From: Candidatus Magnetominusculus sp. LBB02 | GTDB lineage: Bacteria > Nitrospirota > Thermodesulfovibrionia > Thermodesulfovibrionales > Magnetobacteriaceae | Assembly (NCBI GenBank): GCA_022321325.1 | Contig: JAKOEO010000012.1 | Span: 1 to 61,654 of the forward strand | Direction: 5' to 3' | DNA: 61,654 nt | In this document: one piece after another, positions 5,521 to 55,246 of the stretch | Layout: each line of letters starts with the position of its first letter | Position numbering within the stretch: the first letter of the stretch is position 1 | The notes under the pieces: model-generated | Seen by the model: only the letters and a program-made list of their open reading frames with translations | Told to the model about the DNA's origin: nothing | Databases searched by the model: none | Translations under genes and position numbers: made by a program

Positions 5521-5607
5521 GATGACGGCCTAAAAATGCCGTGTTATCTCACCCTGATATGGGCTATGATTATTAACGGAATAGGACATTTCTACTTTGG
5601 TGCAACA
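5521..5607 (+). mobile_element. Eroded right end of an IS1202/ISNCY-like element
   Basis: 87 bp matching the reverse complement of 17681-17768 with 5 substitutions and 1 indel; ends GGACATTTCTACTTTGGTGCAACA. Confidence 0.8.
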
Positions 5608-5623
5608 TTTTGCAAATTAGCGC

Positions 5624-5653
5624 TTGCCTATTTATGAAATATTGATTTATAAT
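5624..5653 (+). promoter_or_regulatory. sigma70 promoter of the rpmI operon
   Basis: TTGCCT-18bp-TATAAT upstream of an AGGAGG RBS. Confidence 0.7.
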
Positions 5654-5697
5654 TACTGCTTGACTGCGGTTTTTAAGAAATAGGAGGTTTAGAAGAT

Positions 5698-5895
5698 ATG
5701 CCAAAATTAAAGACGCACAGAGGGGCAGCGAAACGGTTTAAGAAGACCGGTACCGGCAAAATAAAGAGAAACCGGGCATATAAGAGCCACATGATGACCG
5801 GCAAACCGTCAAAAAGGACGCGTAGGCTGAGGACATCAACAACGGTTGACGCCACTCAGCAGAGAAACATATCGCGGCTTATTCCGTATCTGTAA
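5698..5895 (+). CDS. rpmI: 50S ribosomal protein L35
   Basis: [21 protein letters not shown] signature. Confidence 0.98.
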
Positions 5896-5940
5896 TAATA
5901 AAAATTATGCCGGGTGAGCCGGTTTTTGGAGGATTGAGCA

Positions 5941-6297
5941 ATGCCCAGAGCAAAAGGTGGATTTAAGACAAGAAGAAGAAGGAAGAAGATACTAAGAAAG
6001 GCGCGTGGCTACTATGGCGGCAGGAGTAAACTCTTCAGGGTGGCCTCTGAGGCGGTTGACCATGCCCTCTTACACGCATATGATGACAGGAAGAACAAAA
6101 AACGCGACTTCAGACGCCTCTGGATAATCAGAATCAATGCTGCGGCACGGGCGGTCGGCCTCACCTACAGCCGCTTTATGCAGGGCCTGAAAACCGCGGG
6201 TATTGTTCTTGACAGAAGGGCGCTTGCCGAGTTGGCCGTAAGCAATGTCGCTCAGTTCAACCAATTGGCAGAAAGCGTAAAACAACAGACTGCGTGA
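5941..6297 (+). CDS. rplT: 50S ribosomal protein L20
   Basis: [25 protein letters not shown]. Confidence 0.98.
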
Positions 6298-7325
6298 CGA
6301 CGCTTGAATCTTTTTTATCAGAGCTTGAGGCGGTTGCCACAACGGCCGCCTTGCGCGAGCTTCGATCGAAATATTTAGGGAAAAAGGGTGTTCTCACAGA
6401 GCAACTGAAAACGCTTCCCAGTCTTGATCCCCATCATAGGGCAGTCTTTGGAGCATCGATAAACGAAACCAAGAAATACATCGAAGAACGCCTTAAAGAA
6501 CACGAAAAGCAGCTCACATCGAAAGAAATCAAGGCAAAACTCTCAAAAGAAAAAATAGATATTACGCTTCCCGGCTATTACAAAAAACCAGGCGGCAGAC
6601 ATCCCGTTACTATCATTCTTGCCGAGATAACCGACATATTCGTCTCAATGGGCTTCAGCATAGAGGAAGGCCCTGAGGTGGAGAGCGATTATTATAATTT
6701 CGAGGCATTAAACATCCCGCAAAATCATCCCGCCCGCGATATGCAGGATACGTTTTATATTGACAGCAATGTCGGCAGCAATAGATCCGGCGATGACGCC
6801 TTCGTTCTCAGGACGCATACCTCGCCAGTGCAGATAAGGGTTATGAAGAACAGCTCCCCGCCGCTTAGGTTTATCGCCCCGGGGAAGGTCTATCGCTGCG
6901 ACTCGGACATATCCCACAGCCCGATGTTTCACCAGATTGAGGGCCTTGTGGTGGATAAAGACATATCGTTTGCCAATCTGAAGGGGCTGCTTGAAGGGTT
7001 TTTAAGGAAGGTCTTCGGCCCGGATGTGCCGGTTCGTCTGAGGCCAAGTTTTTTCCCGTTTACCGAGCCGTCGGCAGAGGTTGACATGGGCTGTTATTTC
7101 TGTAAGGGCAGCGGCTGCCGGGTCTGTAAAGGTACGGGATGGATAGAGATAATGGGGGCGGGAATGGTTGACCCCAGAGTATTCAACAATGTCGGCTATG
7201 ACACTAATCAATACAGCGGGTTTGCCTTTGGGATGGGCATAGAGCGCATCGCCTCTTTAAAATATGGCATTGACGACATCAGGCTCTACTATGAGGGCGA
7301 CCTGAGATTTCTAAGGCAATTCTAA
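6294..7325 (+). CDS. pheS: Phenylalanine-tRNA ligase alpha subunit
   Basis: [36 protein letters not shown]. Confidence 0.98.
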
Positions 7326-7326
7326 A

Positions 7327-9381
7327 ATGCTTATATCATATAATTGGCTAAAAGACTATATAGACTTCGATAACTCCGCCGGGGAGATTGCCGAAATATT
7401 GACGATGTCCGGCCTTGAGGTTGAGTCGTTTAATCGCCAGGACAACGGCGATGTCATCATGGAATTAAATGTAACCCCTAACAGGGCGGACTGTTTGAGC
7501 GTTATAGGGGTTGCCCGCGATGTGGCGGCAATACTTAAGAAGACGTTAAAACTTCCGGAAACGGGGGATTTTGGAAACGCCACAGATACAGGGTTCAAGG
7601 TTGAAATCATTGACGCGGCTCTCTGCCATCGCTACTGCGGCATTGTAATCAGTGGCGTGAAGGTTACCCCGTCGCCAGAATGGATGAGGGACAGGCTTGA
7701 GCACTCCGGTATCAGGCCGATTAACAATATCGTTGACATAACGAACTATGTGCTGTTGGAGTTTGGCCAGCCGCTTCATGCCTTCGATTTGTCAAGGCTG
7801 AAAGGTAATAAGATTATCGTCAAGGCCGCTGATAGGCCACAGATGATCGCCACGCTTGACGGCATTGAACGCACTGTCGCCGCCGGTACGCTTCTGATTT
7901 GTGACGCTGACGGGCCAGTTGCCCTTGCAGGCGTAATGGGCGGGAAAGACTCCGCCGTTACTGAAACCACTACAGACATCCTTTTAGAGAGCGCGTGGTT
8001 TTCCCCTGCCTCGATACGTGTAACTTCAAAGCTGACAGGGCTAAGGTCTGAGTCCTCATTCAGATTTGAACGGACGACAGACATTGATGGCGTAAAAAAT
8101 GCCGCATTGAGGGCTGCCTCATTGATGGCTGCTCACTCTGGAGGGCTTATTTCAGAGGTCATTGACAATTATCCAAATCGCTACGCTGCACGGCCAATTG
8201 CCATGAGCTGCGAAAATGTTCAAAAATTATTGGGCGTTAAAATTCCAGAAGGCCAGATAGTGGATATTCTTAGCCGCCTTGGTTTTACAGTAGAAAGACT
8301 GCCGCAGAACTTGCTTATCACGCCGCCGTCTTTCAGGCGTGATATAGAGCTGGAGGCAGACCTCATCGAGGAGATAGCGCGTATCTATGGCTATAACAAC
8401 ATCCCCGCGGTAATGCCGCAGTTGTCCCTTGCTATAAATAATGTCAGCGACAAGCACAAGAAACTTGCCGAGCTAAGGCATTCTCTACGATACGCCGGGT
8501 TTACCGAGACGATTAATTATAGTTTTACATCGAAGGATGACCTTACTCTGCTTAACATACCTGAAGGCGACCAGAGGAGAGCCGCCGTTACCGTAAAAAA
8601 TCCCCTGCAAAAAGATTATAATATTCTCAGGACGTTTCTACTGCCATCCCTTTTGAAAAATCTGAAGCATAACATTGCCGTTGGCGCAAAAGAGGTCAAC
8701 ATCTATGAGATAGGCACAGTGTTTTTCGACACAGGGGATGAGTTTCCGAAAGAGCGGCTCAAACTTGCCGTGTTGTCATATTCAGGCAAAGGCAAAAGGC
8801 TCTACAATGAGCCTGCCTCGCAATTTTATAGTATGAAAGGGCTGCTTGAGACCATTTCCTCTGTGAATTATGAGCTGAGACAATCGAACGAGGCGTTTTT
8901 AGATGACGGCCAATCGGCTGACATTTGTATTGGCGGCGGCAATGAGAAGGTGGGGTTTTTAGGGCAGGTATCTGCTGAGATTGCCGCAAGGCTCGATATG
9001 ATTGTTGATAGACCTGAAATCGCTGTTTTGGAGATGTTTATTGAGCATGAAGAGACTAAACCCATGTTTAAAACAAGCATTATTACTAAATACCCGCCGA
9101 TTGAGCGCGATATAGCAATTGTCGTTGACGACTCCTGCCAGTCCTGCGACATAATCAATCTTATAAAAGACAAACGGCTTGACCCTGGGCGCCTTGTGGA
9201 GTTCGTAGAAATATTCGATCTCTACAAAGGCAAAAACATCCCTGATGGCAAGAAGAGCCTTGCCTATCATATCGTGTATAGGTCAAAAGAGCGGACGCTG
9301 CTTGAGAGCGAAGTTGACGCGCTCCATGCTGAAATAGTTAATCATGTAATAGGTAAGACCGGCGGTGCGCTGAGGGCATAG
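7327..9381 (+). CDS. pheT: Phenylalanine-tRNA ligase beta subunit (short form, no B2 OB domain)
   Basis: TPNRADCLS, NNIVDITNY, DLIEEIARIYGY, C-terminal FDX-ACB domain; 684 aa. Confidence 0.96.
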   Translation: MLISYNWLKDYIDFDNSAGEIAEILTMSGLEVESFNRQDNGDVIMELNVTPNRADCLSVIGVARDVAAILKKTLKLPETGDFGNATDTGFKVEIIDAALCHRYCGIVISGVKVTPSPEWMRDRLEHSGIRPINNIVDITNYVLLEFGQPLHAFDLSRLKGNKIIVKAADRPQMIATLDGIERTVAAGTLLICDADGPVALAGVMGGKDSAVTETTTDILLESAWFSPASIRVTSKLTGLRSESSFRFERTTDIDGVKNAALRAASLMAAHSGGLISEVIDNYPNRYAARPIAMSCENVQKLLGVKIPEGQIVDILSRLGFTVERLPQNLLITPPSFRRDIELEADLIEEIARIYGYNNIPAVMPQLSLAINNVSDKHKKLAELRHSLRYAGFTETINYSFTSKDDLTLLNIPEGDQRRAAVTVKNPLQKDYNILRTFLLPSLLKNLKHNIAVGAKEVNIYEIGTVFFDTGDEFPKERLKLAVLSYSGKGKRLYNEPASQFYSMKGLLETISSVNYELRQSNEAFLDDGQSADICIGGGNEKVGFLGQVSAEIAARLDMIVDRPEIAVLEMFIEHEETKPMFKTSIITKYPPIERDIAIVVDDSCQSCDIINLIKDKRLDPGRLVEFVEIFDLYKGKNIPDGKKSLAYHIVYRSKERTLLESEVDALHAEIVNHVIGKTGGALRA

Positions 9382-9457
9382 GCGGCCACTTCCGGCTTTA
9401 AAATAATTTATTGATTTTGATTTGCACAAAATTGTATTATCAGCCGGAGGGTGCGTT

Positions 9458-10213
9458 ATGAAAACGGCAAAAATCATTGCAATAACCAATCAAAAAGGCG
9501 GAGTTGGCAAGACTACCACGGCGGTTAACCTTACCGCGGGGCTAATCAAAAATGGCTATAAGACCCTGCTTATTGACCTTGATTCTCAGGGAAACGCCTC
9601 GGCCTCTCTGGGGTTAATCATCGAAGATGCCACAAGGACAGTTAAAGACCTGCTTCTGCACCAAAAAGGCCCGCGTGATTTTATTGCTAAGGCCGATACG
9701 ATAGAGCTAATCCCGTCTAATAATTCACTGAAAGACATAGAAGACACGCTGCTTAGCGACAAGAAATTCGATACGCTTAAACATTCCATAGCGCCGCTTG
9801 CAAACGACTACGACTATATCATCATAGACTGTCCGCCAAGCATAAACGTGTTTACGAAAAATGCGCTGAGGGCGGCAAATGAGATAATTGTCCCTGTAGA
9901 TGTTGGGTATTTCTCGCTTCTGGGCATTAAGCAGCTGCTTGAGGAGATAGAGCATTTCAAAAAGGAGTTAAACCCGCGGCTGACGATACGCGGCGTCCTT
10001 GCCTGCAAATATGACAGACGCACATCGCTGTCAGCGCAGATTTATGAGGCGCTCAGGCAGAGTTTTCCAGATAAATTATTTAAAACCCATATTCGCCTGA
10101 GCATAGACATTGTGCGCGCTCAAATCGCCCAAAAGGACATTTACAGTTATAATCGCAGGGCTGCCGCCGCAGAGGACTACAATGCCCTGACTGAGGAGAT
10201 AATCAATGGCTAA
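9458..10213 (+). CDS. ParA/Soj-family ATPase (orphan)
   Basis: NQKGGVGKTT, IDLDSQGNA, IIIDCPPS; ATG 9458 follows GGAGG. Confidence 0.92.
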   Translation: MKTAKIIAITNQKGGVGKTTTAVNLTAGLIKNGYKTLLIDLDSQGNASASLGLIIEDATRTVKDLLLHQKGPRDFIAKADTIELIPSNNSLKDIEDTLLSDKKFDTLKHSIAPLANDYDYIIIDCPPSINVFTKNALRAANEIIVPVDVGYFSLLGIKQLLEEIEHFKKELNPRLTIRGVLACKYDRRTSLSAQIYEALRQSFPDKLFKTHIRLSIDIVRAQIAQKDIYSYNRRAAAAEDYNALTEEIING

Positions 10214-10715
10214 TAAAAAGCAGATAATGGACAAGTTGAGCGCCCTGAATCTTGCCACACCGACAAAGACGCGCACCCATGAGGCCGCTGCCCCGGCAGG
10301 GTCTCAAACGCCTGAACCACCTCAAAAAGCCAAAACACACAGAGCGGCAGTTGTAGAGGCAAAACAGGCTAAGCCCTCGCCGCCTGCCCCGCCTGATTCT
10401 GGCGGCAGGATAGAGACCGGCGATTTTACATTGTTTGTAGACAGCGCCGGGCAGACTATGGCAGTTGCCGAGATTAATCAGCCCATTTTCAGCGGCCCTT
10501 CAGGGGTATGCACATTTACGCTGTTTGTTGATAACATCACAGCCCTTATGAAGATAAGCGAAGAGTTTCAAAATAATCTCCTCAGTATTAACTCGATGAT
10601 GATTGACAGCTACAGGAGGACATTGACAATAACATTTGACACAATGATACACACCTATGGACAGTTCGTTGAGAGTTTGAAGGATATGATACCATCGGCT
10701 CTCAAACAAAGATAG
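10206..10715 (+). CDS. Hypothetical ParA partner protein
   Basis: Overlaps the ParA stop; basic N-terminus, Pro/Ala linker, amphipathic helical C-terminus. Confidence 0.75.
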   Translation: MANKKQIMDKLSALNLATPTKTRTHEAAAPAGSQTPEPPQKAKTHRAAVVEAKQAKPSPPAPPDSGGRIETGDFTLFVDSAGQTMAVAEINQPIFSGPSGVCTFTLFVDNITALMKISEEFQNNLLSINSMMIDSYRRTLTITFDTMIHTYGQFVESLKDMIPSALKQR

Positions 10716-10731
10716 AGAATGTTATAAGCGT

Positions 10732-11124
10732 AGGAGCAGGCCATGCGGCCGCCCCTGTTGACGGTATACACGCCGCCTATAGGGGAGGAAAGTCCGAGCT
10801 CCGCATGGGCAGGACGGCTGCTAACGGCAGCCGGGGGCGACCCCAGGGAAAGTGCAACAGAAATTATACCGCCGCGCGCCGCACAGCGCGTGGTAAGGGT
10901 GAAATGGTGAGGTAAGAGCTCACCGCCTCCTGCGGCAACGTGGAAGGCAGGTAAACCCCGTCCGGAGAAAGGTTGAATATGTCCCGCTTTTCGGGCTGCC
11001 CGCCCGATACCTTGCGCGTAGAGCGCTGGGAGGCGGGACGGGTACTAACCGCATAAGGCGGCAAGCAATTGTCGTCTCAGATGAATGGCCGCGCAACACA
11101 GAACTCGGCTTACGGCCTGCTCTT
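10732..11124 (+). ncRNA. rnpB: RNase P RNA (bacterial type A)
   Basis: GAGGAAAGTCCGAGC, GAAAGTGCAACAG, AGGGTGAAATGGTGAGGTAAGAGC, ACAGAACTCGGCTTA; P1 GGAGCAGGCC/GGCCTGCTCT. Confidence 0.96.
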
Positions 11125-11185
11125 ATTTATTTTATTTACTGGGGGCGTCAATCTTGGGAGCGCCTGCCGCCAACCATTTGTCTCT

Positions 11186-11515
11186 TTATTTAATTATGGC
11201 CAGACCATCGAGGATTTTTTCAGTTTTAGACATATCGCCTATGAAATGCACAACTGGCAGGGGGTTTTGTTTTACCAGCATCGGCGTTGCTAAAACACCT
11301 TGCCGCCGCGCAAGTGACGGCCTGTTATATATATCTATTATCTCAAGGTCATAATGTCCTTCGATATACCGCTCGCAAATCTTCTTTATATTCTCTATCG
11401 CACGCATTGACAGAAGCGTCTGGCCTGTCACATAGAGCTTCAGGATAATGGCGCTTTTATCAGACTTATCAATAGAATTACCGCTCATCCTGTCTTTTCC
11501 TCGCTCCATGGTCAC
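11186..11515 (-). CDS. kaiB: KaiB-family protein (second copy, divergent)
   Basis: LKLYVTGQT..S.RAI..NI..IC, IIDIY..P.LA, ATP.L.K..P.P, IGDMS; true start may be ATG 11488. Confidence 0.88.
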   Translation of the reverse strand: MTMERGKDRMSGNSIDKSDKSAIILKLYVTGQTLLSMRAIENIKKICERYIEGHYDLEIIDIYNRPSLARRQGVLATPMLVKQNPLPVVHFIGDMSKTEKILDGLAIIK

Positions 11516-11578
11516 ACTGTTTTAGAACGGCCGCTGATAGCATAACCGGAATTGATATCTACCCTGCTAAACAGGGTA

Positions 11579-13264
11579 TTAAGGAACTCTCTTCTTTGAA
11601 ATATCGAAGCTAATCCTGGCGTTGATGTCTGTCCTTAGTCTTTCCTGTGACAATATTAAATCAATCTCAGCCTGGTCATTGGCAATGGCAGCCTGCAATG
11701 CCTCTATGCGAACCTCGGCCTCTTTTCGTTTTGATTCTAATTCACGCAGCCTGCGCTCAACCTCTTGTTTCATAGCAAAGTCCTCTGCCCTGTCTTTTGC
11801 CTCCTGCACGATGCGGGCAGTCCCTGTAAGAACCATGCCTGCACCGGTGTATGCCTCAAGGAGCTGCACTCCATTACTGGCAATAATGAACTCGCTTATC
11901 TGGTTTGAATGAGACATTCCCCTTGACTTTATAACATACAGCCCTCTTGTACGCTCTCCGTTATATTCTATCGTCTTCAGCACTATCCATGTGTCCATCA
12001 GCGATGAGATTCCTACGTCCGTATTGTCAATGTATTCACTTGATGTGGTAAGAGTGGTAAAAAGCGATGTGATATCGCGGGATTTCATCAGGTCAACAAG
12101 CCGCATCATCAGTGTCTTTACCTCATCTGAACCTCCAATATCACTATAATTCGTAATCGGGTCCAATATGCACACAGAGGGATTGAATTCGTTAATCAGT
12201 TTGTGGATTGTAACAAGATGGGTCTCTATGCCGAAGGAAGTCGGCCTGGCCGCGTTGAACCTGAGAAGACCCTGTTCAATAAAAGGCGCCAGATCAATGC
12301 CTATAGACCTGCCGTTTCTGATTATCTGATGCTGTGATTCCTCTGACGCTATATAGAGACAGCGCTGCCCTCGTTCGCATGTCGCTTTAGCAAGGTGTAC
12401 GGCTAAGCTTGTCTTTCCTGTGCCTGCCGTGCCGGATACCAATATCGAACTGCCCACGTAATAGCCCTTGCCGTCCATCATTGCGTCGAGATGGGCGATG
12501 CCGGTTGAAATATGCTCGGTCAAGGCCTTATGCTCAAGGCCCAATGATGTTATTGGCAGTACAGATATGCCGGTTGTATCTATAAGAAAGGGATACTCAT
12601 TTGCGCCGTGGGCAGAGCCGCGATACTTGACAACACGCAGGCGGCGGGTGGTACGCTGCCCTTCTACCCTGTGGTCAAGCAGAACTACGCAATCGGCGAC
12701 ATACTCTTCTATCCCGTGGCGGGTCAGTGCGCCGTCGCCTCTTTCTGCGGTGATGACGGCTGTTATTTCATTTTCCTTTATCCATCTGAACAGCCTTCTT
12801 AACTCCGCCCTTAGAATGTGGTGGTCTTGCATGCCGGCAAATAACGTCTCGATGGTATCGAGGACTAGTCTCTTTGCACCGATCGACTTCATTGCGTGCT
12901 CAAGCCTGACAAACAGACCTTCAAGGTCATAGTCTCCCGTTACTGTAAAATCGTCGCGGTCTATATAGATATGATCTAGCAAAATCTTTTTCATTTTTAT
13001 CATGCCGGAAATATCAAAACCAAGAGATTCAACGTTCATAATCAGGTCTTTTTCCGACTCGTCAAAAGAGATAAACACACCCGGCTCATCATATTCATTA
13101 GCGCCATGAACAAGGAACTCCATTGCCAGAAGGGTCTTGCCACACCCTGCATTTCCGCATACTAAAGTTGGACGCCCCTTTGGCAGCCCGCCGGTAATCT
13201 CGTCAAGCCCATGAATCCCTGTTAAACACTTCTGCAATTTATTGTTGATAATTTTCTTGCTCAT
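11579..13264 (-). CDS. kaiC: KaiC-family double ATPase, SS-type with C-terminal coiled coil (KaiC2-like)
   Basis: Two P-loops (GNAGCGKT, GTAGTGKT), EEYVADCV, GISSLMDTW, KSRG, ~70-aa coiled-coil tail. Confidence 0.92.
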   Translation of the reverse strand: MSKKIINNKLQKCLTGIHGLDEITGGLPKGRPTLVCGNAGCGKTLLAMEFLVHGANEYDEPGVFISFDESEKDLIMNVESLGFDISGMIKMKKILLDHIYIDRDDFTVTGDYDLEGLFVRLEHAMKSIGAKRLVLDTIETLFAGMQDHHILRAELRRLFRWIKENEITAVITAERGDGALTRHGIEEYVADCVVLLDHRVEGQRTTRRLRVVKYRGSAHGANEYPFLIDTTGISVLPITSLGLEHKALTEHISTGIAHLDAMMDGKGYYVGSSILVSGTAGTGKTSLAVHLAKATCERGQRCLYIASEESQHQIIRNGRSIGIDLAPFIEQGLLRFNAARPTSFGIETHLVTIHKLINEFNPSVCILDPITNYSDIGGSDEVKTLMMRLVDLMKSRDITSLFTTLTTSSEYIDNTDVGISSLMDTWIVLKTIEYNGERTRGLYVIKSRGMSHSNQISEFIIASNGVQLLEAYTGAGMVLTGTARIVQEAKDRAEDFAMKQEVERRLRELESKRKEAEVRIEALQAAIANDQAEIDLILSQERLRTDINARISFDISKKRVP

Positions 13265-13296
13265 CCCGATACCTCCACGGCTTATCTGACATGACC

Positions 13297-14892: not shown

Positions 14893-14901
14893 ATAGAGTC
14901 A

Positions 14902-16422
14902 TCACCTGTCTTTAAACAACTCATCTGTACGATATACCTCGGCAGAGGAAATCTGTACAGGATTGCCGGAGAGTATTCCCACCACGTTTCTAAATGGTTT
15001 GCCTATGTGCATCCCTGTGCCGTCAATCTGGAACTCGCGAATCTCCTTGTCGTGCGTGGAGCCGCGCATCTTTAAAACCGTGATGCCGCGCCTGGTCTCG
15101 CCGAAGATTTCGACATAACGCAACAGTATAATCGTATCTGTAATTGTGGAGATATGAGTCTCGGTGATGGACGTACCGCCTAAGAGAGTCGGCGTTGTCG
15201 AGGTGAAAAATCCCGCAATTTCCTTATGTTTAATAAACGATGTAATGCTTATCACAAACTCCCTGAAACTCCTTATTGTTGATACCCTCTCCAGCGCCGA
15301 GAGGCTGTCAACAGCGATTCTGTTAGGTTTATATGCGTCTATCGTCTTTTTCATCTTAATAAGATGGTCTTCAAGCGAGGCGGTCTCAGGGTATTCGCAT
15401 ACTACCATTAACCGTCCTTCGTTTTCCATCTTTTCGTAGTCAACCCCCCAGCCTATGGCGTTTCTGAAAAGCTGTTCACGGCTTTCCTCAAAGGCAAATA
15501 TCAGGCATCTCTCGTTATCGGCAGCGCCGCCGGCGATGAAGTGTGTAACCATAAGGGTCTTGCCGTTTCCAGTTGCGCCGGAGACAAGGATTATGGAATC
15601 CCTATAAAAACCTCCCGCACACATGTTGTCAAGCTCAGTGCAGCCTGAGGTGATTCTCACAACCGAGGACTTCTGTTTAAGCTCTATGGCAGAGAGCGGG
15701 ATGATAATTATCCCCTCCCCCGGTATAATAGTAAAGGGAAATTCGCCCTTATAATGGTCAGTGCCGCGAAACTTCAATATCTCGATAGTGCGGCGTCTTC
15801 TTTCGTCCTCAAGGGAGTTTCTCAATATAACTACATTGTCGGCGACAAACTCCTCAACGTCAAATCTGGCAATGCTGCCCTTTTCGTCAATGCGCTCTGC
15901 CGTTATAATGCTGGTAACGTTCATTTTTCTAAGGGCATGGGTTATGCGGAATATCTCGCGCCTGACTGTGGCCCTGTCTGAAAACTGGCTGAAAAACGCG
16001 CCAAGCGAATCAAACGATACCCTTGTAGCCCCGACTTTTTTAACCGCGTGTTCTATGCGCGCCAAAAGGCCGCCCATATCATATGCGCCGGCCTCCACCA
16101 CTTCTGTCTCAGGCTGAGGAGAGGCGTCTATAAATACCCACATGCCGTCGGCCTCAAACTGCTTAATATCCCAGCCGAAGCTGATCATATTTTTTCTTAT
16201 CTCATCGGGGGATTCCTCAAATGTGACAAATAGACCCGTTTCTTTATTATTCCTTATGCCTTCAACCAAAAACTGCGTGGCAAAAACGGTCTTCGAACTT
16301 CCCGCCGTACCGGAAAGAAGCGTTGAGCGGTGCTTAGGAAACCCGCCCTTTGCTATCCAGTCAAAACCCGGCACATGCGTCGGCAGCTTTTCCAGACCTT
16401 TATTGTTATTATTCACATCCAT
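14902..16422 (-). CDS. kaiC: KaiC circadian ATPase/kinase, ST-type (KaiC1/KaiC3-like)
   Basis: GTAGSSKT, VEEFVADNV, GATGNGKT, HISTITDTIILLRYVE, KMRGSTHDKEIREF, A-loop-like ILSGNPVQI. Confidence 0.95.
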   Translation of the reverse strand: MDVNNNNKGLEKLPTHVPGFDWIAKGGFPKHRSTLLSGTAGSSKTVFATQFLVEGIRNNKETGLFVTFEESPDEIRKNMISFGWDIKQFEADGMWVFIDASPQPETEVVEAGAYDMGGLLARIEHAVKKVGATRVSFDSLGAFFSQFSDRATVRREIFRITHALRKMNVTSIITAERIDEKGSIARFDVEEFVADNVVILRNSLEDERRRRTIEILKFRGTDHYKGEFPFTIIPGEGIIIIPLSAIELKQKSSVVRITSGCTELDNMCAGGFYRDSIILVSGATGNGKTLMVTHFIAGGAADNERCLIFAFEESREQLFRNAIGWGVDYEKMENEGRLMVVCEYPETASLEDHLIKMKKTIDAYKPNRIAVDSLSALERVSTIRSFREFVISITSFIKHKEIAGFFTSTTPTLLGGTSITETHISTITDTIILLRYVEIFGETRRGITVLKMRGSTHDKEIREFQIDGTGMHIGKPFRNVVGILSGNPVQISSAEVYRTDELFKDR

Positions 16423-16727
16423 TAGGCATCCCCTCCTTCATCTTTCTTTCTCATACACGGTTGTAAATCAAGACCCACAAGGACTTTGTCTGTATCAGAG
16501 AGGTCGCCTATTACGCGCCTGATAGGAAGCGGCAGCACCTTTATCAATGTCGGCGTGGCGAGGATCTTTTCGTCCTCCGCTAGCTGCGGTCTTTCAAGGA
16601 TGTCTATTACAACCATCTCATATTGACTTTGAAGTTCATGTGTGCATATATTTTGCAGGTTGGCAATAGCCCGTTCCGACTTGGGCGTCTTACCGGTTAT
16701 GTAGAGTTTTAACAAATAATTGTTCAT
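16422..16727 (-). CDS. kaiB: KaiB protein
   Basis: [50 protein letters not shown]. Confidence 0.95.
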
Positions 16728-16751
16728 TAAGGACCTCCCTATTTACTTATA

Positions 16752-17621
16752 TCAATTTTTTCTGAATACGATGAAATAATTTAGATAGTATGTGACAAGA
16801 TTCCCCATCAGCTCCAACACTATAAAGCGTCCCTCTTCCAGGTATAGCTGCGCCTTCGCCATATTGACCTCGTTGAGTTTCAACTTGAGCGACTCGGAAT
16901 GAATCTCAACCACATCCCTTGGGCCGGACTTGAGAAAGCCAAGCTGTTCTGACAAGGAAAGCAGGTCGTCCTGTATCTGATTTTCAGTCTTATATATTCT
17001 TTGTTCTACGGCGGCGTCAAGAATCTCACAATACTTAGTTACGAAATTGTTGAATGTCTCCACACTGCTTTCGCGCAGAGACGACTTGCCCAACATTTGA
17101 GATGTAATCGCCGACCTTGAACTTCCAGAAAGACGCTCTAAAGACTTTAACTCCAAGCTGTGGCCGTGTTCATATTGGATTTTAAGCATATCCATGCGCA
17201 ATCTGTTTCGTTCTATGGCATAGAGCAGAGACCGCAGCAATGAATGCCCATCAAAAGTCCCCTTGGCAAGACAATCCTGAGCGCCCATAGATACTGCCGT
17301 TTGTGCAACGAAATCATCGTCTTCGGCTTTTGAAAGTATGACAATAGGTTTTTCGGGTATCAGGAATTGGACAATAGAGTATGTATTGAGAAGTTCGCTG
17401 TCAGGCAGCATCAAATCAAGGAGCACTATATCTACGCTGCATTGCGATAATTTAAGAGAAGCCTGCGAGAAACTGTCCGCGTGGTCAACTTTGATATTAA
17501 CGCTTGCCTTCTCGGCAAGAAGCGCCTCTATGCGGGCTGCCTCTTTTGCGTCAGCCTCAATTATAAGAAGATTTATGGTCTTTTCCTGTTCTTGTTCCAA
17601 GCCAACCCCTGATGAAGCCAA
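16752..17621 (-). CDS. Receiver domain fused to a KaiA-like C-terminal domain (KaiA3-like)
   Basis: REC with VLLD..S..K; C-terminal LGFLKSGPRDVVEIH..EEGRFIVLELMGNLVTYY resembles the KaiA C-domain (VVEIH..EGR..L..Y); first gene of the kaiB-kaiC operon. Confidence 0.8.
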   Translation of the reverse strand: MASSGVGLEQEQEKTINLLIIEADAKEAARIEALLAEKASVNIKVDHADSFSQASLKLSQCSVDIVLLDLMLPDSELLNTYSIVQFLIPEKPIVILSKAEDDDFVAQTAVSMGAQDCLAKGTFDGHSLLRSLLYAIERNRLRMDMLKIQYEHGHSLELKSLERLSGSSRSAITSQMLGKSSLRESSVETFNNFVTKYCEILDAAVEQRIYKTENQIQDDLLSLSEQLGFLKSGPRDVVEIHSESLKLKLNEVNMAKAQLYLEEGRFIVLELMGNLVTYYLNYFIVFRKN

Positions 17622-17634
17622 TTACTGAAGACTA

Positions 17635-17664
17635 ATTATAATATAAGTCGCCGATAAATGTCAA
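17635..17664 (-). promoter_or_regulatory. sigma70 promoter of the kai operon
   Basis: Minus strand TTGACA(17664-17659)-18bp-TATAAT(17640-17635). Confidence 0.8.
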
Positions 17665-17680
17665 ATGGCCATGATCTTTT

Positions 17681-17960
17681 TGTTGCACCAAAATAGAAAT
17701 GTCCTATTCTGTTAATAATCATAGCCCATATCTGGGTGAGATGACAAGGCATTTTTTAGGCCGTCATCCTTTTCCATTGTTTTATGTCTGGTCATGTAAG
17801 CTTTACCTTGCATTACACATTTCTGTATGCCATTTCTCCATGGGTGGTCGTGCGCTGGTTTATGAATCATTTTCACCTTCGATCGCTGTGCGTTTTGCCT
17901 TTAAGATATTGGCAATGTGCCGTCAAGCCATTTTTCCACTATGACTTGAGCTGGCTGCCC
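17681..17960 (-). mobile_element. Truncated IS1202/ISNCY-like element: transposase 3' remnant plus right end
   Basis: Minus strand reads QVIVEKWLDGTL, then after a frameshift HKPAHDHPWR..GYDY*, followed by AGGACATTTCTATTTTGGTGCAACA. Confidence 0.8.
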
Positions 17961-17977
17961 GGTTCTATTGGCAAATA

Positions 17978-18496: not shown

Positions 18497-18515
18497 GGCG
18501 GCTGTGGGGGTCTCC

Positions 18516-18671
18516 TTAGATGGTCTTGTAGCCGGGGCAGCCTTCAAATCCCTTGCAGCCGCCCTTTCTTAGTTTACAGTCCCTGTTGATACAAACAGCC
18601 TTTTCCTCTTTTAGCGGCCGCCTGGTCTGTCTTTTAGGGTTATCGCTTGTGTCTTTTTTTGATGTGCTCAT
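18516..18671 (-). CDS. 51-aa Cys-rich small protein (absent from ORF track)
   Basis: MSTSKKDTSDNPKRQTRRPLKEEKAVCINRDCKLRKGGCKGFEGCPGYKTI*; ATGA overlap with the rluD stop. Confidence 0.7.
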   Translation of the reverse strand: MSTSKKDTSDNPKRQTRRPLKEEKAVCINRDCKLRKGGCKGFEGCPGYKTI

Positions 18672-41804: not shown

Positions 41805-41976
41805 CGCTTACTGCCAAGCTTATTTCATATTACTTCAAAAAAATTAAACAGGGTGACTGTGGTCACTGCTTTGTTTGTGGTATTAATGCTTTGATAATTC
41901 CATATTTGTTGTCTGTGACAAATTACACGAGGGGGCCTGCCGTTGGTGGGCTATATTTTATAGAGAGGAGAGGGAT

Positions 41977-42744: not shown

Positions 42745-42787
42745 TTATTATATGATAACTATTATCGCCGAAAAGGAGATTTGAGAT

Positions 42788-44500: not shown

Positions 44501-44524
44501 GTTTCGCTTTTAGAGTTTTTTGCC

Positions 44525-44559
44525 AAAAGGGATTCCTGCTAAGTTGGGAGTCCCTTTTT
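44525..44559 (+). terminator. Intrinsic terminator
   Basis: AAAAGGGATTCC..GGAGTCCCTTTTT hairpin with U tract. Confidence 0.85.
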
Positions 44560-44644
44560 ATTTGTCATCCCTTGTGCATTAATATTTTGTTTTTAAGGGC
44601 GTTTCGTATATAATACCCCTTGTCATGATAAAAACCAGAAACAG

Positions 44645-46686: not shown

Positions 46687-47810
46687 GGGTTATGATTATC
46701 GCTGGGGAGGCCTCCGGCGAGCTGTATGGGGCGATGCTTGCAGTTAGACTGAAAGAGATGTGGCCCGGCCTCTTGTTGCTTGGCATAGGCGGGGAGAAAA
46801 TGGAGGCCGTCGGCGTGGAGCTTCTAAGCGGCATAAACAGCGCCTTTGGCGGCGTGGGAGCGTTGTCGTCTGTCAGACATCTGATAGCCTCTTACAGGAA
46901 AGTTAAGGATGTCTTCAGGACTGTCCGCGTTGATGTTGTAGTGTTGATAGACTTCCCTGATTTTAACCTCAAGGTGGCAAAGGCCGCAAAAAAATGCGGC
47001 ATCAAGGTCCTCTACTACGTAAGCCCTCAGGTATGGGCATGGCGAATGGGCAGGATAAAAAAAGTAGCGCGGCGAAGCGATATAATTGCCGCCATACTTC
47101 CCTTTGAGCCAGAGATTTACGCAAAGGAAAACGTATATTGCGAATTCGTAGGCCACCCTATCGCAGAGGAACTGAAAAACCATCCAGTTGACAAGGCCGC
47201 TGTCAGAAGAGAGTTTTCTATTGATGGCAGCCGCCCCGTTGTGGGGATACTTCCCGGAAGCAGGGGCAGCGAACTTCGCAGACACCTTCCTGTGCTGATA
47301 GACGCCGTAAAGATATTGAAGGTGCGCCATCCCGAATTTCAGTACCTGATGCCGATTGCCCCAAATCTGGCTGTTGATACGTTTGGGGCGATGCTTGTTG
47401 AGTTGGAGTCTCTGGGTGTAAAATTTACAGACGGGCGGGCGGTTGAGGTGTTGTCGGTTTGTAATCTCGCCGTAGTGAAATCGGGGACGGCGGCGTTTCA
47501 GGCGGCACTTATTGGAGTGCCGGTAGTGGTTATATATAAAATGGCGGCGCTGGATTATAATATAATTAAGAGGATTATAGAGGTGAAATATATAAACCTT
47601 GTCAATCTTATCTACGATGCCCCGGTGGTCAAGGAACTGATTCAGGATATGGCAGTGCCGGAGGCTGTGGCGGGGGAACTGATTAAGCTATACGAAGACG
47701 AAGATTTGCGAAATGAAACGCTTGAGAAGTTCAGACGCCTGAGGGAGATATTCGACCAGAAAAACCCGACAAACCGCGTAGCTGAAATGGTTGCGCAGTT
47801 AACCGCCTGA
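46677..47810 (+). CDS. lpxB: Lipid-A-disaccharide synthase
   Basis: AGEASGE, IDFPDFN, YYVSPQVWAWR, FVGHP, LPGSR. Confidence 0.96.
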   Translation: MPVRVMIIAGEASGELYGAMLAVRLKEMWPGLLLLGIGGEKMEAVGVELLSGINSAFGGVGALSSVRHLIASYRKVKDVFRTVRVDVVVLIDFPDFNLKVAKAAKKCGIKVLYYVSPQVWAWRMGRIKKVARRSDIIAAILPFEPEIYAKENVYCEFVGHPIAEELKNHPVDKAAVRREFSIDGSRPVVGILPGSRGSELRRHLPVLIDAVKILKVRHPEFQYLMPIAPNLAVDTFGAMLVELESLGVKFTDGRAVEVLSVCNLAVVKSGTAAFQAALIGVPVVVIYKMAALDYNIIKRIIEVKYINLVNLIYDAPVVKELIQDMAVPEAVAGELIKLYEDEDLRNETLEKFRRLREIFDQKNPTNRVAEMVAQLTA

Positions 47811-47813
47811 GCT

Positions 47814-49061
47814 GTGGCGTTAATCTACCGCATATTATATCTACTTGCCCTTATGGCCATAGTGCCCGCCGAGTATTTTAAGAGGCCTAAGGAATTAAGA
47901 AGACGCTGGTTTTTAGAAAGGTCTGGTGTCTTACCGGATGAGACCGGTACTTCTCCAACCGTCTGGATTCACGCAGTATCAGTGGGCGAGGCCATAAGCG
48001 CCATACCCCTGATACGCCGTATCGCAGCCGAGATTACCCCGCACATTGTCCTGTCAACCGTTACCGACACAGGGCAGCAGACAGCACGGGAGAAACTCCC
48101 TGATGACATCAGGATAGTCTATGTGCCGTTTGACACATCCGCGGCGGTAAGTCGGGCTATCAAGGCGGTCAACCCGCGCGTATTTATCGTCATGGAGACG
48201 GAGCTGTGGCCGTGCATAATTGATCAGATGCACAGGCGCAACATTCCTGTTGTGATACTCAATGGCCGCATATCTGAAAAATCCTTCAAAGGTTACAGGA
48301 AAATCAGGTTTTTTATGAAAAATGTCTTGCGAAACGTAACGCTCTTTGGAATGCAGGACGCGGTATATTCAGAGAGAATCATAGAGATGGGCGCTGACAA
48401 GAATACCGTGAAGACACTGGGGAATTTCAAATTTGACGCCGTACCGCCTGCCACAGCGCCGCAGTGGGCGCTTGTACTGACACATCCTGTAATAGTCATA
48501 GGCAGCACTCACGAAAAGGAAGAGGCCATTATCCTAAGCGTGATAAAGAGGCTTATGGCAGAGTTTGAAACGCTCTGCGTTGTGTTGGCCCCGCGCCATC
48601 CAGCACGTTTTGATGAGGCCGCCTCGATATTAAACTCTTTCGATATGCCATTTATAAGGAGGAGCGAAATTGCGCATATGCCAAAGGCCGCCGACCATGG
48701 CATGGTCGTCCTGCTTGATACAATAGGCGAACTTGCGTCAGTTTATGGGGCGGCGGATGTATGCGTAATGGGCGGGAGCTTTGTGCCAAAGGGCGGGCAT
48801 AATCTGCTTGAGCCGGCCTACTGGGGAAAGCCCATCGTGTGCGGCCCGCATATGGAGAATTTTCCTATGACAGGGGAGTTTCTGGCTGCCCACGCAGCCG
48901 TTAGCGCAGGCTCTGATGACCTGTACGACATACTTTCAGAGCTTCTCTCAAACGAGGCAAAAAGGGCTGAGATGGGCAGACAGGCGCAGGCTCTTTATAG
49001 AAAAAACTCCGGGGCCATTGACAGTGCCGTCAGAGAGTTAAAGACTATAATGGGCGTCTGA
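47814..49061 (+). CDS. waaA: Kdo transferase
   Basis: WIHAVSVGE, ETELWP, APRHPARF, GGHNLLEP. Confidence 0.96.
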   Translation: MALIYRILYLLALMAIVPAEYFKRPKELRRRWFLERSGVLPDETGTSPTVWIHAVSVGEAISAIPLIRRIAAEITPHIVLSTVTDTGQQTAREKLPDDIRIVYVPFDTSAAVSRAIKAVNPRVFIVMETELWPCIIDQMHRRNIPVVILNGRISEKSFKGYRKIRFFMKNVLRNVTLFGMQDAVYSERIIEMGADKNTVKTLGNFKFDAVPPATAPQWALVLTHPVIVIGSTHEKEEAIILSVIKRLMAEFETLCVVLAPRHPARFDEAASILNSFDMPFIRRSEIAHMPKAADHGMVVLLDTIGELASVYGAADVCVMGGSFVPKGGHNLLEPAYWGKPIVCGPHMENFPMTGEFLAAHAAVSAGSDDLYDILSELLSNEAKRAEMGRQAQALYRKNSGAIDSAVRELKTIMGV

Positions 49062-49064
49062 CAA

Positions 49065-49075
49065 TTGGTGCAACA
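49065..49075 (+). repeat. Minimal tip of the IS1202-like right end
   Basis: TTGGTGCAACA, 17 bp before TTGACC-18-TATAGT. Confidence 0.55.
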
Positions 49076-49147
49076 TGAGGCAATTAGGCCGCTTGACCTG
49101 AGAGAGACAGTTTAGTTATAGTAACTTGCAGAAATACAAGGAGGATT

Positions 49148-52177
<3,030 letters not shown>

Positions 52178-52294
52178 ATCATCTGTATGATAACGCAACA
52201 GGAGGGAAAAGATACATTATGCCGCATGTTTTTTAACTGCGCACTACTACAATATGCTGCATTACCGCTATTACAAAAAAAATAATAATTACTA

Positions 52295-52323
52295 TTGACA
52301 ACTAATATATTATGTGTTATATT
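52295..52323 (+). promoter_or_regulatory. Strong PR-like promoter
   Basis: TTGACA-17bp-TATATT with TGn extension; ATG at 52329 about at the TSS. Confidence 0.75.
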
Positions 52324-52328
52324 AGTTT

Positions 52329-52802
52329 ATGAAGCGTGGTTTTACAAGGTCGTGGCGCAGGGAGCTGACCAGCAATGTCTGGGCAATGCCTCCAATGTAT
52401 CACAGGGTGTTTTATTGGCTCAGGCAGAAGGCTAAGTGGAAACCAGACCTTGTGCCCACTGACAGGGGCCTGGGCATCTGGCTTGACCCAGGTATGCTCA
52501 TTACCAGCTATCAGATTATTGCCGAGGGTGTGGCGTATCTTGACATGGGCATAGTACGGCAGCCCTCTAAAAAGACAATTGGCAAAATTCTCAAATGGCT
52601 GCAAATAAATGAGCAGATTCAGCTTATCGCAGGCCATTACGGCACGACGATTAAAATATCTAACTGGGACAAGTATCAAAATGCCGTGGCTGCTCCCCTA
52701 CAAACTAAGGGCGGAGGCCGCGGCAAAAGGCGCAAGCCTGACCCATATGCCCACCTTTATATCAAGACTGTAAACAGACGCGCTGAGGCATACCATGACT
52801 GA
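52329..52802 (+). CDS. Phage-type replication initiator / replisome organizer N-terminal domain
   Basis: G.....R......W, PGMLITSY..IA, GTTIKISNWDKYQ pattern of phage replication proteins; upstream of a DnaC-like gene. Confidence 0.7.
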   Translation: MKRGFTRSWRRELTSNVWAMPPMYHRVFYWLRQKAKWKPDLVPTDRGLGIWLDPGMLITSYQIIAEGVAYLDMGIVRQPSKKTIGKILKWLQINEQIQLIAGHYGTTIKISNWDKYQNAVAAPLQTKGGGRGKRRKPDPYAHLYIKTVNRRAEAYHD

Positions 52803-53526
52803 TAACGGCTGCTTGCACATGATCCCGCGCACGGGGGCGGTTGAGATTGAGCGCCAACGGGCGCGGTTAAAATGGAAGGACACCATAAGGAAAAAGATAA
52901 CAGAGATTATGTGCAGGTGCGGCGTACCGGTAAAGTTCTCCGATGCGGAGCAGCGCTCAATAAGCGCAGACATTTTGCAGATGGCTGCGTGTGTGTTTAA
53001 CAATGAGGGATTATTTATTTTTGGCCGCCCCGGCGTTGGAAAGACGCATGTTGCCGCACTCTGCGTAAGGGGTTTTATATTGGCTATGGAGCCTGTGTTC
53101 AGGCAGGAACATGGCACCGTGCCGCAGGAGGTTGGCTATCCGGCCTTCAGCACAGTGGCCGATATGCTTTTGGCCGTAAGGGATTCATTTCGTCAAAAGG
53201 AGTTTTCTGAAAACGACATCCTGAAAAAGTATTCAAGCGCGCCGCTTGTCGTGTTAGACGACTTAGGGGCGGAGAAAGTAACCGAATGGTCTGCAAAGAC
53301 GCTCTACTCGGTAATCAACAGAAGATATGCCGACAATCTGCCGCTTATTATCACAAGCGCTATGAATCTGAAGGAACTTGAGGACAGATATAATGCGGCC
53401 AGCCCAGGCATTGGCAGCGCTATAGCGGTAAGAATTAGTGAGACGAGCAAAATATTGAGCCTTCATGCGGCTCGAAAGAAAGCGGCCTCAGGCCGTAAAA
53501 GGAGGAGGACAGATGAGAGAGTATAA
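52795..53526 (+). CDS. DnaC/IstB-like AAA+ helicase loader
   Basis: GRPGVGKTH, VVLDDLGAE, INRRY...LPLIITS. Confidence 0.88.
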   Translation: MTDNGCLHMIPRTGAVEIERQRARLKWKDTIRKKITEIMCRCGVPVKFSDAEQRSISADILQMAACVFNNEGLFIFGRPGVGKTHVAALCVRGFILAMEPVFRQEHGTVPQEVGYPAFSTVADMLLAVRDSFRQKEFSENDILKKYSSAPLVVLDDLGAEKVTEWSAKTLYSVINRRYADNLPLIITSAMNLKELEDRYNAASPGIGSAIAVRISETSKILSLHAARKKAASGRKRRRTDERV

Positions 53527-53890
53527 TTTTGCAAGAAATGAGGTTTCTCTGGTAACATCATGTATGCGGTGCAAAAAGTACATAACCTGTGAAGAGACAT
53601 GCGTATATGTTGACATGCTGCTACCGGTAAACACGTATTCGCCGGAGATAACCGCAGACGACAATGTGCTGACGGCAGACTACAAGGAAGTCCTGAACGA
53701 ACTCAGAGAAGGCAGGGAGCAGCTCAAAAAAGTCAACATTGGAAAAATCAGACGAATAAAAGACGTCAGGCTTCGCGCGATAGCCGGGATGATATACAGC
53801 AGGGTCAGTATATTTGAGATTGCCGCCCTGCTTGATAAGTCAGTATCTCAGATATACAGAATAGTCAGCAGGGGGCAGTCACAGATTTGA
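53513..53890 (+). CDS. Cys-cluster plus C-terminal HTH regulator
   Basis: GGAGG RBS; CMRC..C..C; SIFEIAALLDKSVSQIYRIV. Confidence 0.75.
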   Translation: MREYNFARNEVSLVTSCMRCKKYITCEETCVYVDMLLPVNTYSPEITADDNVLTADYKEVLNELREGREQLKKVNIGKIRRIKDVRLRAIAGMIYSRVSIFEIAALLDKSVSQIYRIVSRGQSQI

Positions 53891-54151
53891 GATGCTGCGG
53901 GGTTTCTTCAGGAAGGTCCTGCATGATGGATAGTCGGAACAGCGGAATCTAATGATGTCCTCTTGTTTCATGTACAGGTGCATGGGCCTTCCGCAGACGG
54001 GGCAATTTGGCCTGCCCTGCCGTCTCCCGCCAATTGAAAACTGCCTCCCGCAGACCAGACACAAGCGGCGTCGTTTGCCGCTTTTTGTTGTCCCGTATTT
54101 ATAGGACGCATCAAGTCCGCATACAGGGCATTTTTCTTGTGTATCATCCAC
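53879..54151 (-). CDS. Double zinc-ribbon protein
   Basis: CPVC..KYG..GKRRRLCLVC (InsA-like) and CPVCG..M..CSDYPSC (topoisomerase-type). Confidence 0.8.
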   Translation of the reverse strand: MDDTQEKCPVCGLDASYKYGTTKSGKRRRLCLVCGRQFSIGGRRQGRPNCPVCGRPMHLYMKQEDIIRFRCSDYPSCRTFLKKPRSISNL

Positions 54152-54333
54152 CGTTGTCCCCCGCCCGCCAGATTATAACATAATACGGATAGAAAAAAGT
54201 TTACCCGCCGGGGGTGCTTGACAACTCGCCTGCAATAGATGTATTGTTATCAATCCGCTGGAAGGCAGAAGGCTCTGTCTGCCGCGAGGAAGGGGCATTA
54301 AAATGTGTTTTAATAATTCCCGCGAATTTGAAA

Positions 54334-55146
54334 ATGGCTGAAGAGAAGATTTCACCGCAGCAGGTGAAAGACCCTTTGCGGGTTTCTTTTATCATCCCGA
54401 ACTGGAACCATAGACAACTCCTTGACGAATGCATCTCGTCAATAAAGCAATTGACCGGCGGCTTTGAAAAGGAGATAGTCGTCGTTGACAATGCCTCCAC
54501 AGACGGCAGCGCCGAATATGTCAAAAACACCCATCCCGATGTGATTTGCCATTGCAATGCCGAAAATGCAGGTTACGCAAAGGCGACCAATCAGGGTGTG
54601 TCTATGTCAAGCGGACAGATGCTTTTTTTATTGAATAACGATGTCAGGCTCTTTGCCGACTGTCTTGAGGAGCTTGTTAAATGCCTGAACAGAGGCCCTC
54701 GCATTGGCGCTGCTGCCCCGTTGCTATACTATCCGAACGGCAGATTTCAGATCTCATGCCGGCGTTTCCCAACCCCTGCGGCATTGGCCCTGGAGCAGTT
54801 TGGGGTGTTTCGACTGGGCGGCTACAGGAAATGGAAGCTGACTGAACAGGAACATCGCCTCTATTGCGAGGCGCTTCAGCCTATGGCCTCGGCGCTTCTG
54901 ATAAAGCGGGAGTGCTGGGATGAGGTAGGCCCCTTGGACGAAAGATTCCCTATCTTTTTTAACGATGTTGACTGGTGCTACCGTCTGTATAGATATACGA
55001 ACTTTAAGATTGCCATATGCCATGCCGCAGGGGCCTGCCACCATGAGGGAGTATCTGTAAACCGCCTTGGATTTCGGAAGAAGATTAATTTTTACAGGGG
55101 TCTTTTCGATTTCTACAAGAAACACTACCTCAGACGATATATTTAA
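54334..55146 (+). CDS. GT2 glycosyltransferase
   Basis: SFIIPNWN, VVDNASTDGS, LLNND, FNDVDWC. Confidence 0.92.
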   Translation: MAEEKISPQQVKDPLRVSFIIPNWNHRQLLDECISSIKQLTGGFEKEIVVVDNASTDGSAEYVKNTHPDVICHCNAENAGYAKATNQGVSMSSGQMLFLLNNDVRLFADCLEELVKCLNRGPRIGAAAPLLYYPNGRFQISCRRFPTPAALALEQFGVFRLGGYRKWKLTEQEHRLYCEALQPMASALLIKRECWDEVGPLDERFPIFFNDVDWCYRLYRYTNFKIAICHAAGACHHEGVSVNRLGFRKKINFYRGLFDFYKKHYLRRYI

Positions 55147-55147
55147 C

Positions 55148-55172
55148 AGGACATTTCTACTTTGGTGCAACA
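55148..55172 (+). repeat. Terminal repeat of the IS1202-like right end
   Basis: 25-bp exact match to 5583-5607 (AGGACATTTCTACTTTGGTGCAACA); 16 bp before TTGACA. Confidence 0.8.
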
Positions 55173-55246
55173 CGCCGGTCTTCCATATTTGACAAAACAG
55201 TGCCAAATATCACATTATCTATCGCCAGAAAAATTAAAAGGGGGTA

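Follow-up and report, generated by a model that had tools for sequence, protein, structure and literature searches.

In the available text of Siguier et al. (bioRxiv 10.1101/2022.12.17.520857), insertion sequences (ISs) of the IS1202 family fall into subgroups with direct repeats (DRs) of 5–6, 15–17 or 27–28 bp, and a target is given for the first of these only; the accessible part of Harmer, Pong and Hall (PMC10132070) likewise describes the family's groups with long target duplications as having no conserved target, and the portion of PMC3541774 that we consulted locates IS1202 at the capsule locus of the pneumococcus and does not relate it to a promoter. Promoter targeting by IS1202 elements is unreported in the literature we covered, which did not extend to subscription journals, supplements, TnPedia or the journal version of Siguier et al. 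According to the sections consulted of Guerillot et al. 2014 (PMC3942029), TnGBS, ISLre2 and ISKra4 insert in one orientation 15–17 bp upstream of sigma-A promoters with 8–9 bp DRs, and the RNA polymerase initiation complex is cited there as the proposed contact. Here we examine a stretch of 61,654 nucleotides from Candidatus Magnetominusculus sp. LBB02 (contig JAKOEO010000012.1, hereafter the window), in which an IS1202-family insertion sequence has left four eroded right ends, each pointing into a promoter. Based on intact relatives, we propose that in most long-DR insertions the duplication stops exactly at the upstream edge of the −35 box, probably because the transposase complex docks against RNA polymerase holoenzyme bound at the promoter, a reading to which we assign a probability of about 0.7.

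The exact sequence TTGGTGCAACA occurs four times in the window, ending at 5607, 49075 and 55172 on the plus strand and at 17681 on the minus strand, and it was present in none of 100 dinucleotide shuffles of the window. The original prediction, an earlier reading of this DNA from sequence, had described these as termini each pointing into a promoter at a distance of 16–17 bp; the places and strands were confirmed, and the gaps from the end of the motif to a −35-like hexamer measure 16, 16, 17 and 16 bp at 5607 (TTGCCT), 17681 (TTGACA), 49075 (TTGACC) and 55172 (TTGACA), respectively. A −10 element follows after an 18-bp spacer in every case, TATAAT at the first two sites, TATAGT at 49075 and a weak CATTAT at 55172. 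The genes downstream are rpmI (5607), a response-regulator-like gene with kaiB and kaiC (17681), fmdB-ligA (49075), and an open reading frame (ORF) without an NCBIfam family (55172).

All four motifs derive from the right end of an IS1202-family element and have been eroded to different extents. The sequence remaining behind them amounts to about 267 bp at 17947–17681, with internal deletions, 98 bp at 5510–5607, 28 bp at 55145–55172 and 11 bp at 49075, so the graded erosion and the 11-bp size that had been described stand, while the other three sizes (280, 87 and 25 bp) needed slight correction. The tips match the right end of an intact parent element in a genome of the same genus (locus L003, G003:C222), which is 1,705 bp long, has TGT...ACA ends and an internal repeat, and encodes a DDE transposase of 421 amino acids (aa) ending HKPAHDHPWR. 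The peptide of the longest remnant, which had been read as a transposase tail, aligns with residues 351–418 of the parent transposase (56% identity, E 8e-23), and the HPWR remnant thus does have transposase homology.

The assignment to the IS1202/ISNCY group was also upheld, as the parent transposase passes the ISNCY model NF033594 with 377.9 bits against a cut-off of 250. The parent lies within the size range of IS1202 elements (1,320–1,990 bp, with one transposase ORF of 400–500 aa), and its transposase (P0001) has the residues D149, D170–D171, D209, E256 and Q263, that is, the family's DDE set with an extra DD pair and a Q, not K or R, seven residues past the E. The set of domains expected for the family, with helix-turn-helix (HTH) domains at the N terminus, an RNase H core and a TnsB/MuA-like beta-barrel, was recovered from Pfam, where HTH_23, HTH_28 and HTH_29 match the N-terminal part, and from an AlphaFold model of a relative (L048; mean predicted local distance difference test score 82) that matches IstA, TnsB of a CRISPR-associated transposon and MuA; a sequence search of the PDB gave weak IstA matches only. 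The ends of L003 are imperfect terminal inverted repeats of 24–26 bp starting with TGT, accompanied by a second internal binding site. No DR was found at L003 itself; a relative with a 75% identical transposase (L006) has a DR of 15 bp, within the 15–17 bp that define the ISTde1 subgroup. The segment that separates the second D from the E, for which a 5–10 aa indel is a defining trait of that subgroup, is variable in our alignment (A1), which holds no ISAba32 rows for comparison, and in quick trees built without the ISfinder reference transposases (ISTde1, ISCARN53, ISCARN62 and ISCARN63) the elements with 15–17 bp DRs are scattered over several deep branches.

The evidence for a fixed insertion point comes from intact relatives. 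Elements were gathered from the phylum of the window, metagenomes, named genomes, viral contigs and plasmids, and their ends and duplications were called without regard to promoters (434 transposase matches, 304 of them with no DR called). A −35 was scored where TTG, or TTGACA with one mismatch, started at the first base past the DR (offset 0). Of the 100 unique insertions whose DR is at least 12 bp long, 84 have a −35 at offset 0, and the other offsets between −8 and +12 give 0–9. Removal of one miscalled element with a 5-bp DR at an xrs site (L421) leaves 99 long-DR insertions, of which 46 face the promoter with the right end, 38 face it with the left end, 3 have a tandem IS copy next to them and 12 have no −35. 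Their DRs are 15–19 bp long in 95 cases and 26–29 bp in 4, with 93 of the 99 at 15–17 bp, and the position of the −35 follows the edge of the DR rather than the end of the IS. The edge hexamer begins with TTG in 81 of the 84, and TTGACA is the commonest form (33/84). It is from the DRs of these relatives that the 16–17 bp in the window are identified as the target duplication, as had been suspected, and the predicted fixed offset and orientation to sigma70-type promoters hold in 84 of the 99 insertions, with the facing end set by lineage.

The same spacing appears where no DR was called, with TTG at 15–17 bp beyond 59 of 74 right ends and 8 of 60 left ends. In five multi-copy genomes it was found at 33 of 40 right ends, and the other seven comprise four tandem copies, one left-facing copy and two that were not examined. 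When kinship was reduced by clustering the long-DR transposases, a promoter-abutting copy was present in 34 of 38 clusters at 70% amino-acid identity and in 8 of 9 at 50%, with L421 counted as a miss. A held-out set fetched once the rule was fixed has the −35 in four of six insertions and an in-register −10 alone in the remaining two. The DRs have no base preference except for C or G next to the −35, no A-tract or UP-like bias was seen in them, and a comparison of open frames in the flanks gave 39 versus 38 of 78. The host labels include Nitrospira, Bradyrhizobium, Rhodopila, Magnetococcales, Longimicrobiales and Clostridium estertheticum, and short-DR control loci of the ISAba32 type (e.g., L168, L169 and L263) abut xrs sites, as published.

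In the 3.47-Mb genome of the window itself (G000), there are seven exact copies of TTGGTGCAACA, against 0.46 expected under a fifth-order Markov model, and all seven have a TTG-type hexamer 14–17 bp further out, where the random rate is 5.3% per site. The genome-wide copies are therefore not random in spacing or orientation to promoters. A right-end weight matrix gave 18 matches in G000 and 4 in a reversed-genome control; with one left end and one inner repeat excluded, 14 of 16 right-end tips have a hexamer at 14–17 bp.

The sequences at the DR edge behave as promoters and not merely as hexamers. A −10 (TAnnnT, 16–18 bp past the −35, mostly at 17 bp) is present in 58 of 81 promoter flanks and in 5 of 81 opposite flanks. 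It is in register at 31 of 44 TTGAC sites, compared with 23% of intergenic TTGAC in G000, and at 27 of 37 other hexamers, compared with an intergenic background of 8.3% in G000; 5 of the 12 insertions without a −35 also retain an in-register −10 (background 8.4%). Insertions keep their place relative to the two-part promoter even where the −35 is a poor match, and bound holoenzyme is thus the likely landmark. In the window, the rpmI and fmdB promoters are host DNA, in agreement with the earlier claim that the −35 boxes belong to the host: the orthologous promoters are intact without a tip in 5/5 and 7/7 relatives, respectively, which means that the promoters are older than the insertions and that the tips are not conserved. 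The suggestion that retained tips might have been exapted found no support at these two loci, the two that were checked.

The choice of the end that faces the promoter differs between lineages. The clade of the window's element turns its right end to the promoter (36 right, 2 left), whereas a clade about 34% identical uses mostly the left end. The latter lacks the HPW tail (0/43), and 36 of its 43 insertions nonetheless abut promoters, so the HPW C-terminus, which the original prediction had listed as a family trait, is dispensable, and we rejected it as a targeting motif; "HPW" is also absent from the text available to us of the two IS1202 papers (Siguier et al.; Harmer et al.). In the IS1202 subgroup proper, with DRs of 26–29 bp, three of four copies have a −35 at the edge, for example TTGACA-17-TATAAT on a Clostridium plasmid; among copies without a DR, two have TTGACA 26–27 bp from the left end and three have nothing clear. 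A sub-lineage nested in the 16-bp clade makes DRs of 4–7 bp (G673 and G677; L184, L384, L389 and L393–L410), and two of its copies in G677 abut TTGACA. L410 (G677, 6-bp DR) and its sister L367 (G670, 16-bp DR) flank the same promoter sequence, and comparing the two could reveal what determines the length of the duplication. In the quick trees, the xrs elements are nested with two promoter-abutting elements (SH-like approximate likelihood-ratio support 97), as might be expected if promoter targeting came first and xrs targeting arose from it, but an approximately unbiased test did not reject the alternative (p 0.32). The family is present in 2 of 301 genomes of the phylum of G317 (Chitinophagaceae), without a usable DR, and in 21/98, 25/301 and 21/251 genomes of three other groups, for which the search thresholds differ; its scarcity in the former may reflect a different primary-sigma consensus.

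Ten loci (L031, L053, L054, L063, L064, L133, L140, L146, L157 and L160) have junctions of the form right end–DR–left end, with 15–17 bp between the ends. These are tandem reinsertions at one promoter or, on IS-sized contigs, circle junctions; circles of ISKpn21 have a spacer of DR length in the text seen of Siguier et al. (bioRxiv 10.1101/2022.12.17.520857). A circle-junction promoter with a 3-bp spacer, composed of TTGACA from the right end and GATAAT from the left end, was considered and rejected, as no right-end/left-end junction near 3 bp was found and the clear junctions had spacers of 15–17 or 5 bp. On a Bradyrhizobium chromosome (G320; L331, L335, L343, L346 and L412), five of six copies precede near-identical TTGACACGTCGGGCAA sequences, and some flanks there carry multiplied duplication units.

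DDE transposases cut with a 5′ stagger, and in the geometry of class II activators the nearest surface at the −35 edge is sigma region 4 or the neighbouring C-terminal domain of the alpha subunit (alpha-CTD). Given this chemistry, the constant cut would fall on the template strand at the bond immediately upstream of the −35. The variable cut would be on the non-template strand, displaced upstream by about 5, 16 or 27 nt, values that differ by roughly one helical turn (ranges of 15–19 or 26–29 nt, and 4–7 nt in one lineage). The landmark may then be sigma region 4 or the adjacent alpha-CTD, a role proposed for XerC in the sister ISAba32 group. Insertion spares the promoter together with the 16 bp that precede it and is therefore likely to be near-neutral. 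The same promoter can be hit again, giving tandem copies, and later deletions would eat into the IS from the side away from the promoter and stop before reaching it, leaving graded tips; the upstream limit of each tip in the window is a stop codon or a divergent promoter. A wider proposal, to which we would give slightly less than even odds, is that throughout the IS1202 family a lone TnsB-like transposase sets one of its active sites against the border of a host protein already on the DNA (sigma region 4 of RNA polymerase in most branches, XerC in one) and makes its other cut zero, one or two turns of the helix further off. If true, one docking rule would explain the 5/16/27-bp duplication series of the family, and promoter docking would be a second independent invention beside that of the Mutator-type elements.

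Targeting could also depend on RNA polymerase without any protein–protein contact, if the transposase recognized upstream DNA bent or wrapped by the bound holoenzyme. We regard this as unlikely, although it would accommodate a rule that spans distant phyla and transposases about 30% identical with no common C-terminal motif, as well as a far cut that moves in helical-turn steps; a near cut exact to the base with DRs of both 15–19 and 26–29 bp is explained more easily by a protein landmark at a constant position, and contact with XerC has been proposed for the sister group in the part of PMC10132070 available to us. It is less probable still that the transposase reads the −35 hexamer itself and that selection keeps mostly the copies at real promoters. 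The nearly invariant TTG and the prevalence of TTGACA at the edge would be expected then, and right ends often finish in TTGACA, but the −10 register is as good at poor hexamers as at TTGAC, in both cases above background, it is kept in insertions without a −35, and lineages whose ends are not TTGACA, including that of the window, follow the rule.

Random insertion with survival only upstream of promoters seems very improbable. All of the data are indeed surviving insertions and certain lineages are loose, but selection would permit many positions, whereas the signal is one base wide (84 against 1–3 at adjacent offsets), is oriented, and moves with the edge of the DR and not with the IS terminus; such a one-base peak contradicts this explanation. 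We have equally little confidence that a host transcription factor binds the motif in the window, or that the motif was exapted as an upstream element: equal orientation and distance at four promoters, together with an 11-bp copy that has no further IS sequence, could suggest one, yet three copies run into sequence of the intact IS, one of them into transposase codons, and the tip is missing at the orthologous promoters of all relatives compared.

Several observations weigh against docking on the holoenzyme, the reading that we prefer. Contact between transposase and RNA polymerase is itself inferred; the promoters were called from consensus and not from mapped start sites, and the −10 background was drawn from one genome. 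The insertions studied are survivors, kin copies are not independent, three Bradyrhizobium sites have near-identical promoter sequence, and 7 of the 99 long-DR insertions have neither −35 nor −10. In the window, the left end is missing from every copy, so the DRs there are inferred. Some lineages fit poorly: in G673 (4–7 bp DRs) an exact-edge −35-like hexamer is found in 1 of 11 copies with a DR, with two more one base off as judged by eye; G869 is loose, with one −35, one −10 alone and three with neither among five copies with a DR; and a lineage in G1243 with a 7-bp DR is at promoters in none of seven copies. Of these seven copies (L494, L511, L517, L518 and L528–L530; DRs of 7–8 bp), five lie, by eye, within about 40 bp of near-CATTTTCGTACCAAT repeats, and this motif may represent a third type of target, either xrs-like or a repeat family.

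At the rpmI site in the window, the 98-bp remnant (plus strand) is 84% identical to the parent right end over 95 bp and finishes in the 24-bp right inverted repeat (IRR). The following 16 bp (5608–5623) are host DNA and, judging from intact relatives, would be the one copy of the target duplication that survives; a similar 16 bp stands before the same −35 in the IS-free genomes G005 and G008, and the similarity ends at the IS end. The host promoter TTGCCT-N18-TATAAT occupies 5624–5653 and is kept in all five relatives, and rpmI (TIGR00001) lies at 5698–5895, both on the plus strand. The left boundary (5386–5512, minus strand) consists of a divergent tRNA-Val at 5386–5458, identified with ARAGORN, and a TTGACA at 5507–5512 seen in the sequence, which touches the edge of the remnant; a rearrangement may have followed the insertion here. 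DNA upstream of the rpmI promoter varies among relatives (window 5300–5607 against L446–L450).

On the minus strand, the longest remnant (17681–17947) carries the broken 3′ end of the transposase gene (VIVEKWLDG...KPAHDHPWR) and the IRR in blocks 86–92% identical to the parent, followed by the putative 16-bp duplication copy (17665–17680), again so designated from the relatives, and by the host promoter TTGACA-N18-TATAAT (17635–17664). The response-regulator-like gene and the kaiB-kaiC pair that lie downstream span 14902–17621. The remaining two sites are on the plus strand. The 11-bp IRR tip (49065–49075) starts 3 bp past the stop codon of a Kdo-transferase-like gene and, on its own the weakest of the four copies, is supported by its position; the presumed 17-bp duplication copy and the fmdB-ligA promoter TTGACC-N18-TATAGT follow at 49076–49122, the promoter being the one that is tip-free in seven of seven matching relatives. 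The 28-bp IRR tip at 55145–55172, 89% identical to the parent end, lies at a stop codon, that of a glycosyltransferase-like gene, with the candidate 16-bp duplication copy, TTGACA and the weak −10 at 55173–55218 and an ORF at 55247–55759 whose start resembles a signal peptide as judged by eye.

Elsewhere in G000, a degenerate near-full copy (C48, 44117–45283) has both types of end, internal stops and no matching duplication, and stands 16 bp upstream of GTGACA-N17-TATAAT; the start of the next gene looks, by eye, like a leuC-type dehydratase. A right-end tip in C129 (1297–1348) finishes in TTGACA, with no host −35 beyond it and TATCAT 18 bp on, and is possibly a hybrid promoter that uses the IS end.

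Taken together, these analyses supply a target for the long-duplication IS1202 groups, which the two family-defining papers could not find, and relate their odd duplication lengths to a single geometry, in which one cut stays at the edge of a host-protein site and the other moves in steps of about 11 bp. The long-open proposal of RNA polymerase-guided bacterial transposases becomes directly testable with a single-protein element. In uncultured bacteria, the insertions and the tips that remain of them indicate primary-sigma promoters with single-base precision, and a promoter-docking element could become a tool for promoter mapping or gene-sparing integration. The original prediction knew of no description of the strategy; it is in fact published for the Mutator-type TnGBS, ISLre2 and ISKra4, as far as the consulted sections of PMC3942029 show, while its use by IS1202, the DR ending on the −35 and a geometry shared with XerC targeting appear to be new.

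Compared with the described subgroups of its own family, the element resembles the ISTde1 subgroup (15–17 bp DRs) and the IS1202 subgroup (27–28 bp) in size, a single DDE transposase of 400–500 aa, the Q seven residues past the E, TGT ends, a second internal binding site and DR lengths. Unlike the published accounts of both, here the DR abuts a sigma70 −35 in both subgroups, and a lineage with 4–7 bp DRs lies inside the 16-bp clade. ISAba32 and ISAjo2 belong to the same family and, likewise, insert in one orientation with the DR directly beside the binding site of a host protein, and repeated hits give tandem copies one DR apart. However, they use the XerC arm of dif/pdif sites with 5–6 bp DRs and always face it with the left end, whereas here either end, depending on lineage, faces a promoter; the ISAba32 arrangement of a 5–6 bp DR with the left end by an xrs site was not found at the window copies or in their clade, which promoters flank.

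The promoter-docking element works like ISLre2 and TnGBS, yet it belongs to IS1202. The TnGBS integrative and conjugative elements, ISLre2 (p-MULT 3) and ISKra4 (p-MULT 4) are also oriented and also stand 15–17 bp upstream of a sigma-A −35, with the right end facing the promoter and insertion in both directions where the ends are more symmetric. However, those elements have a Mutator-type transposase, a terminal C and DRs of 8–9 bp, and neither of their cuts touches the −35. No Mutator or IS256 family was among the profile matches of our elements, and DRs of 15–29 bp place them outside the definitions of p-MULT 3 and ISKra4. Here the transposase is TnsB/IstA/MuA-like, the ends are TGT, the DR spans the whole gap and one cut falls at the edge of the −35, and the likeness between the two groups is likely to be convergent.

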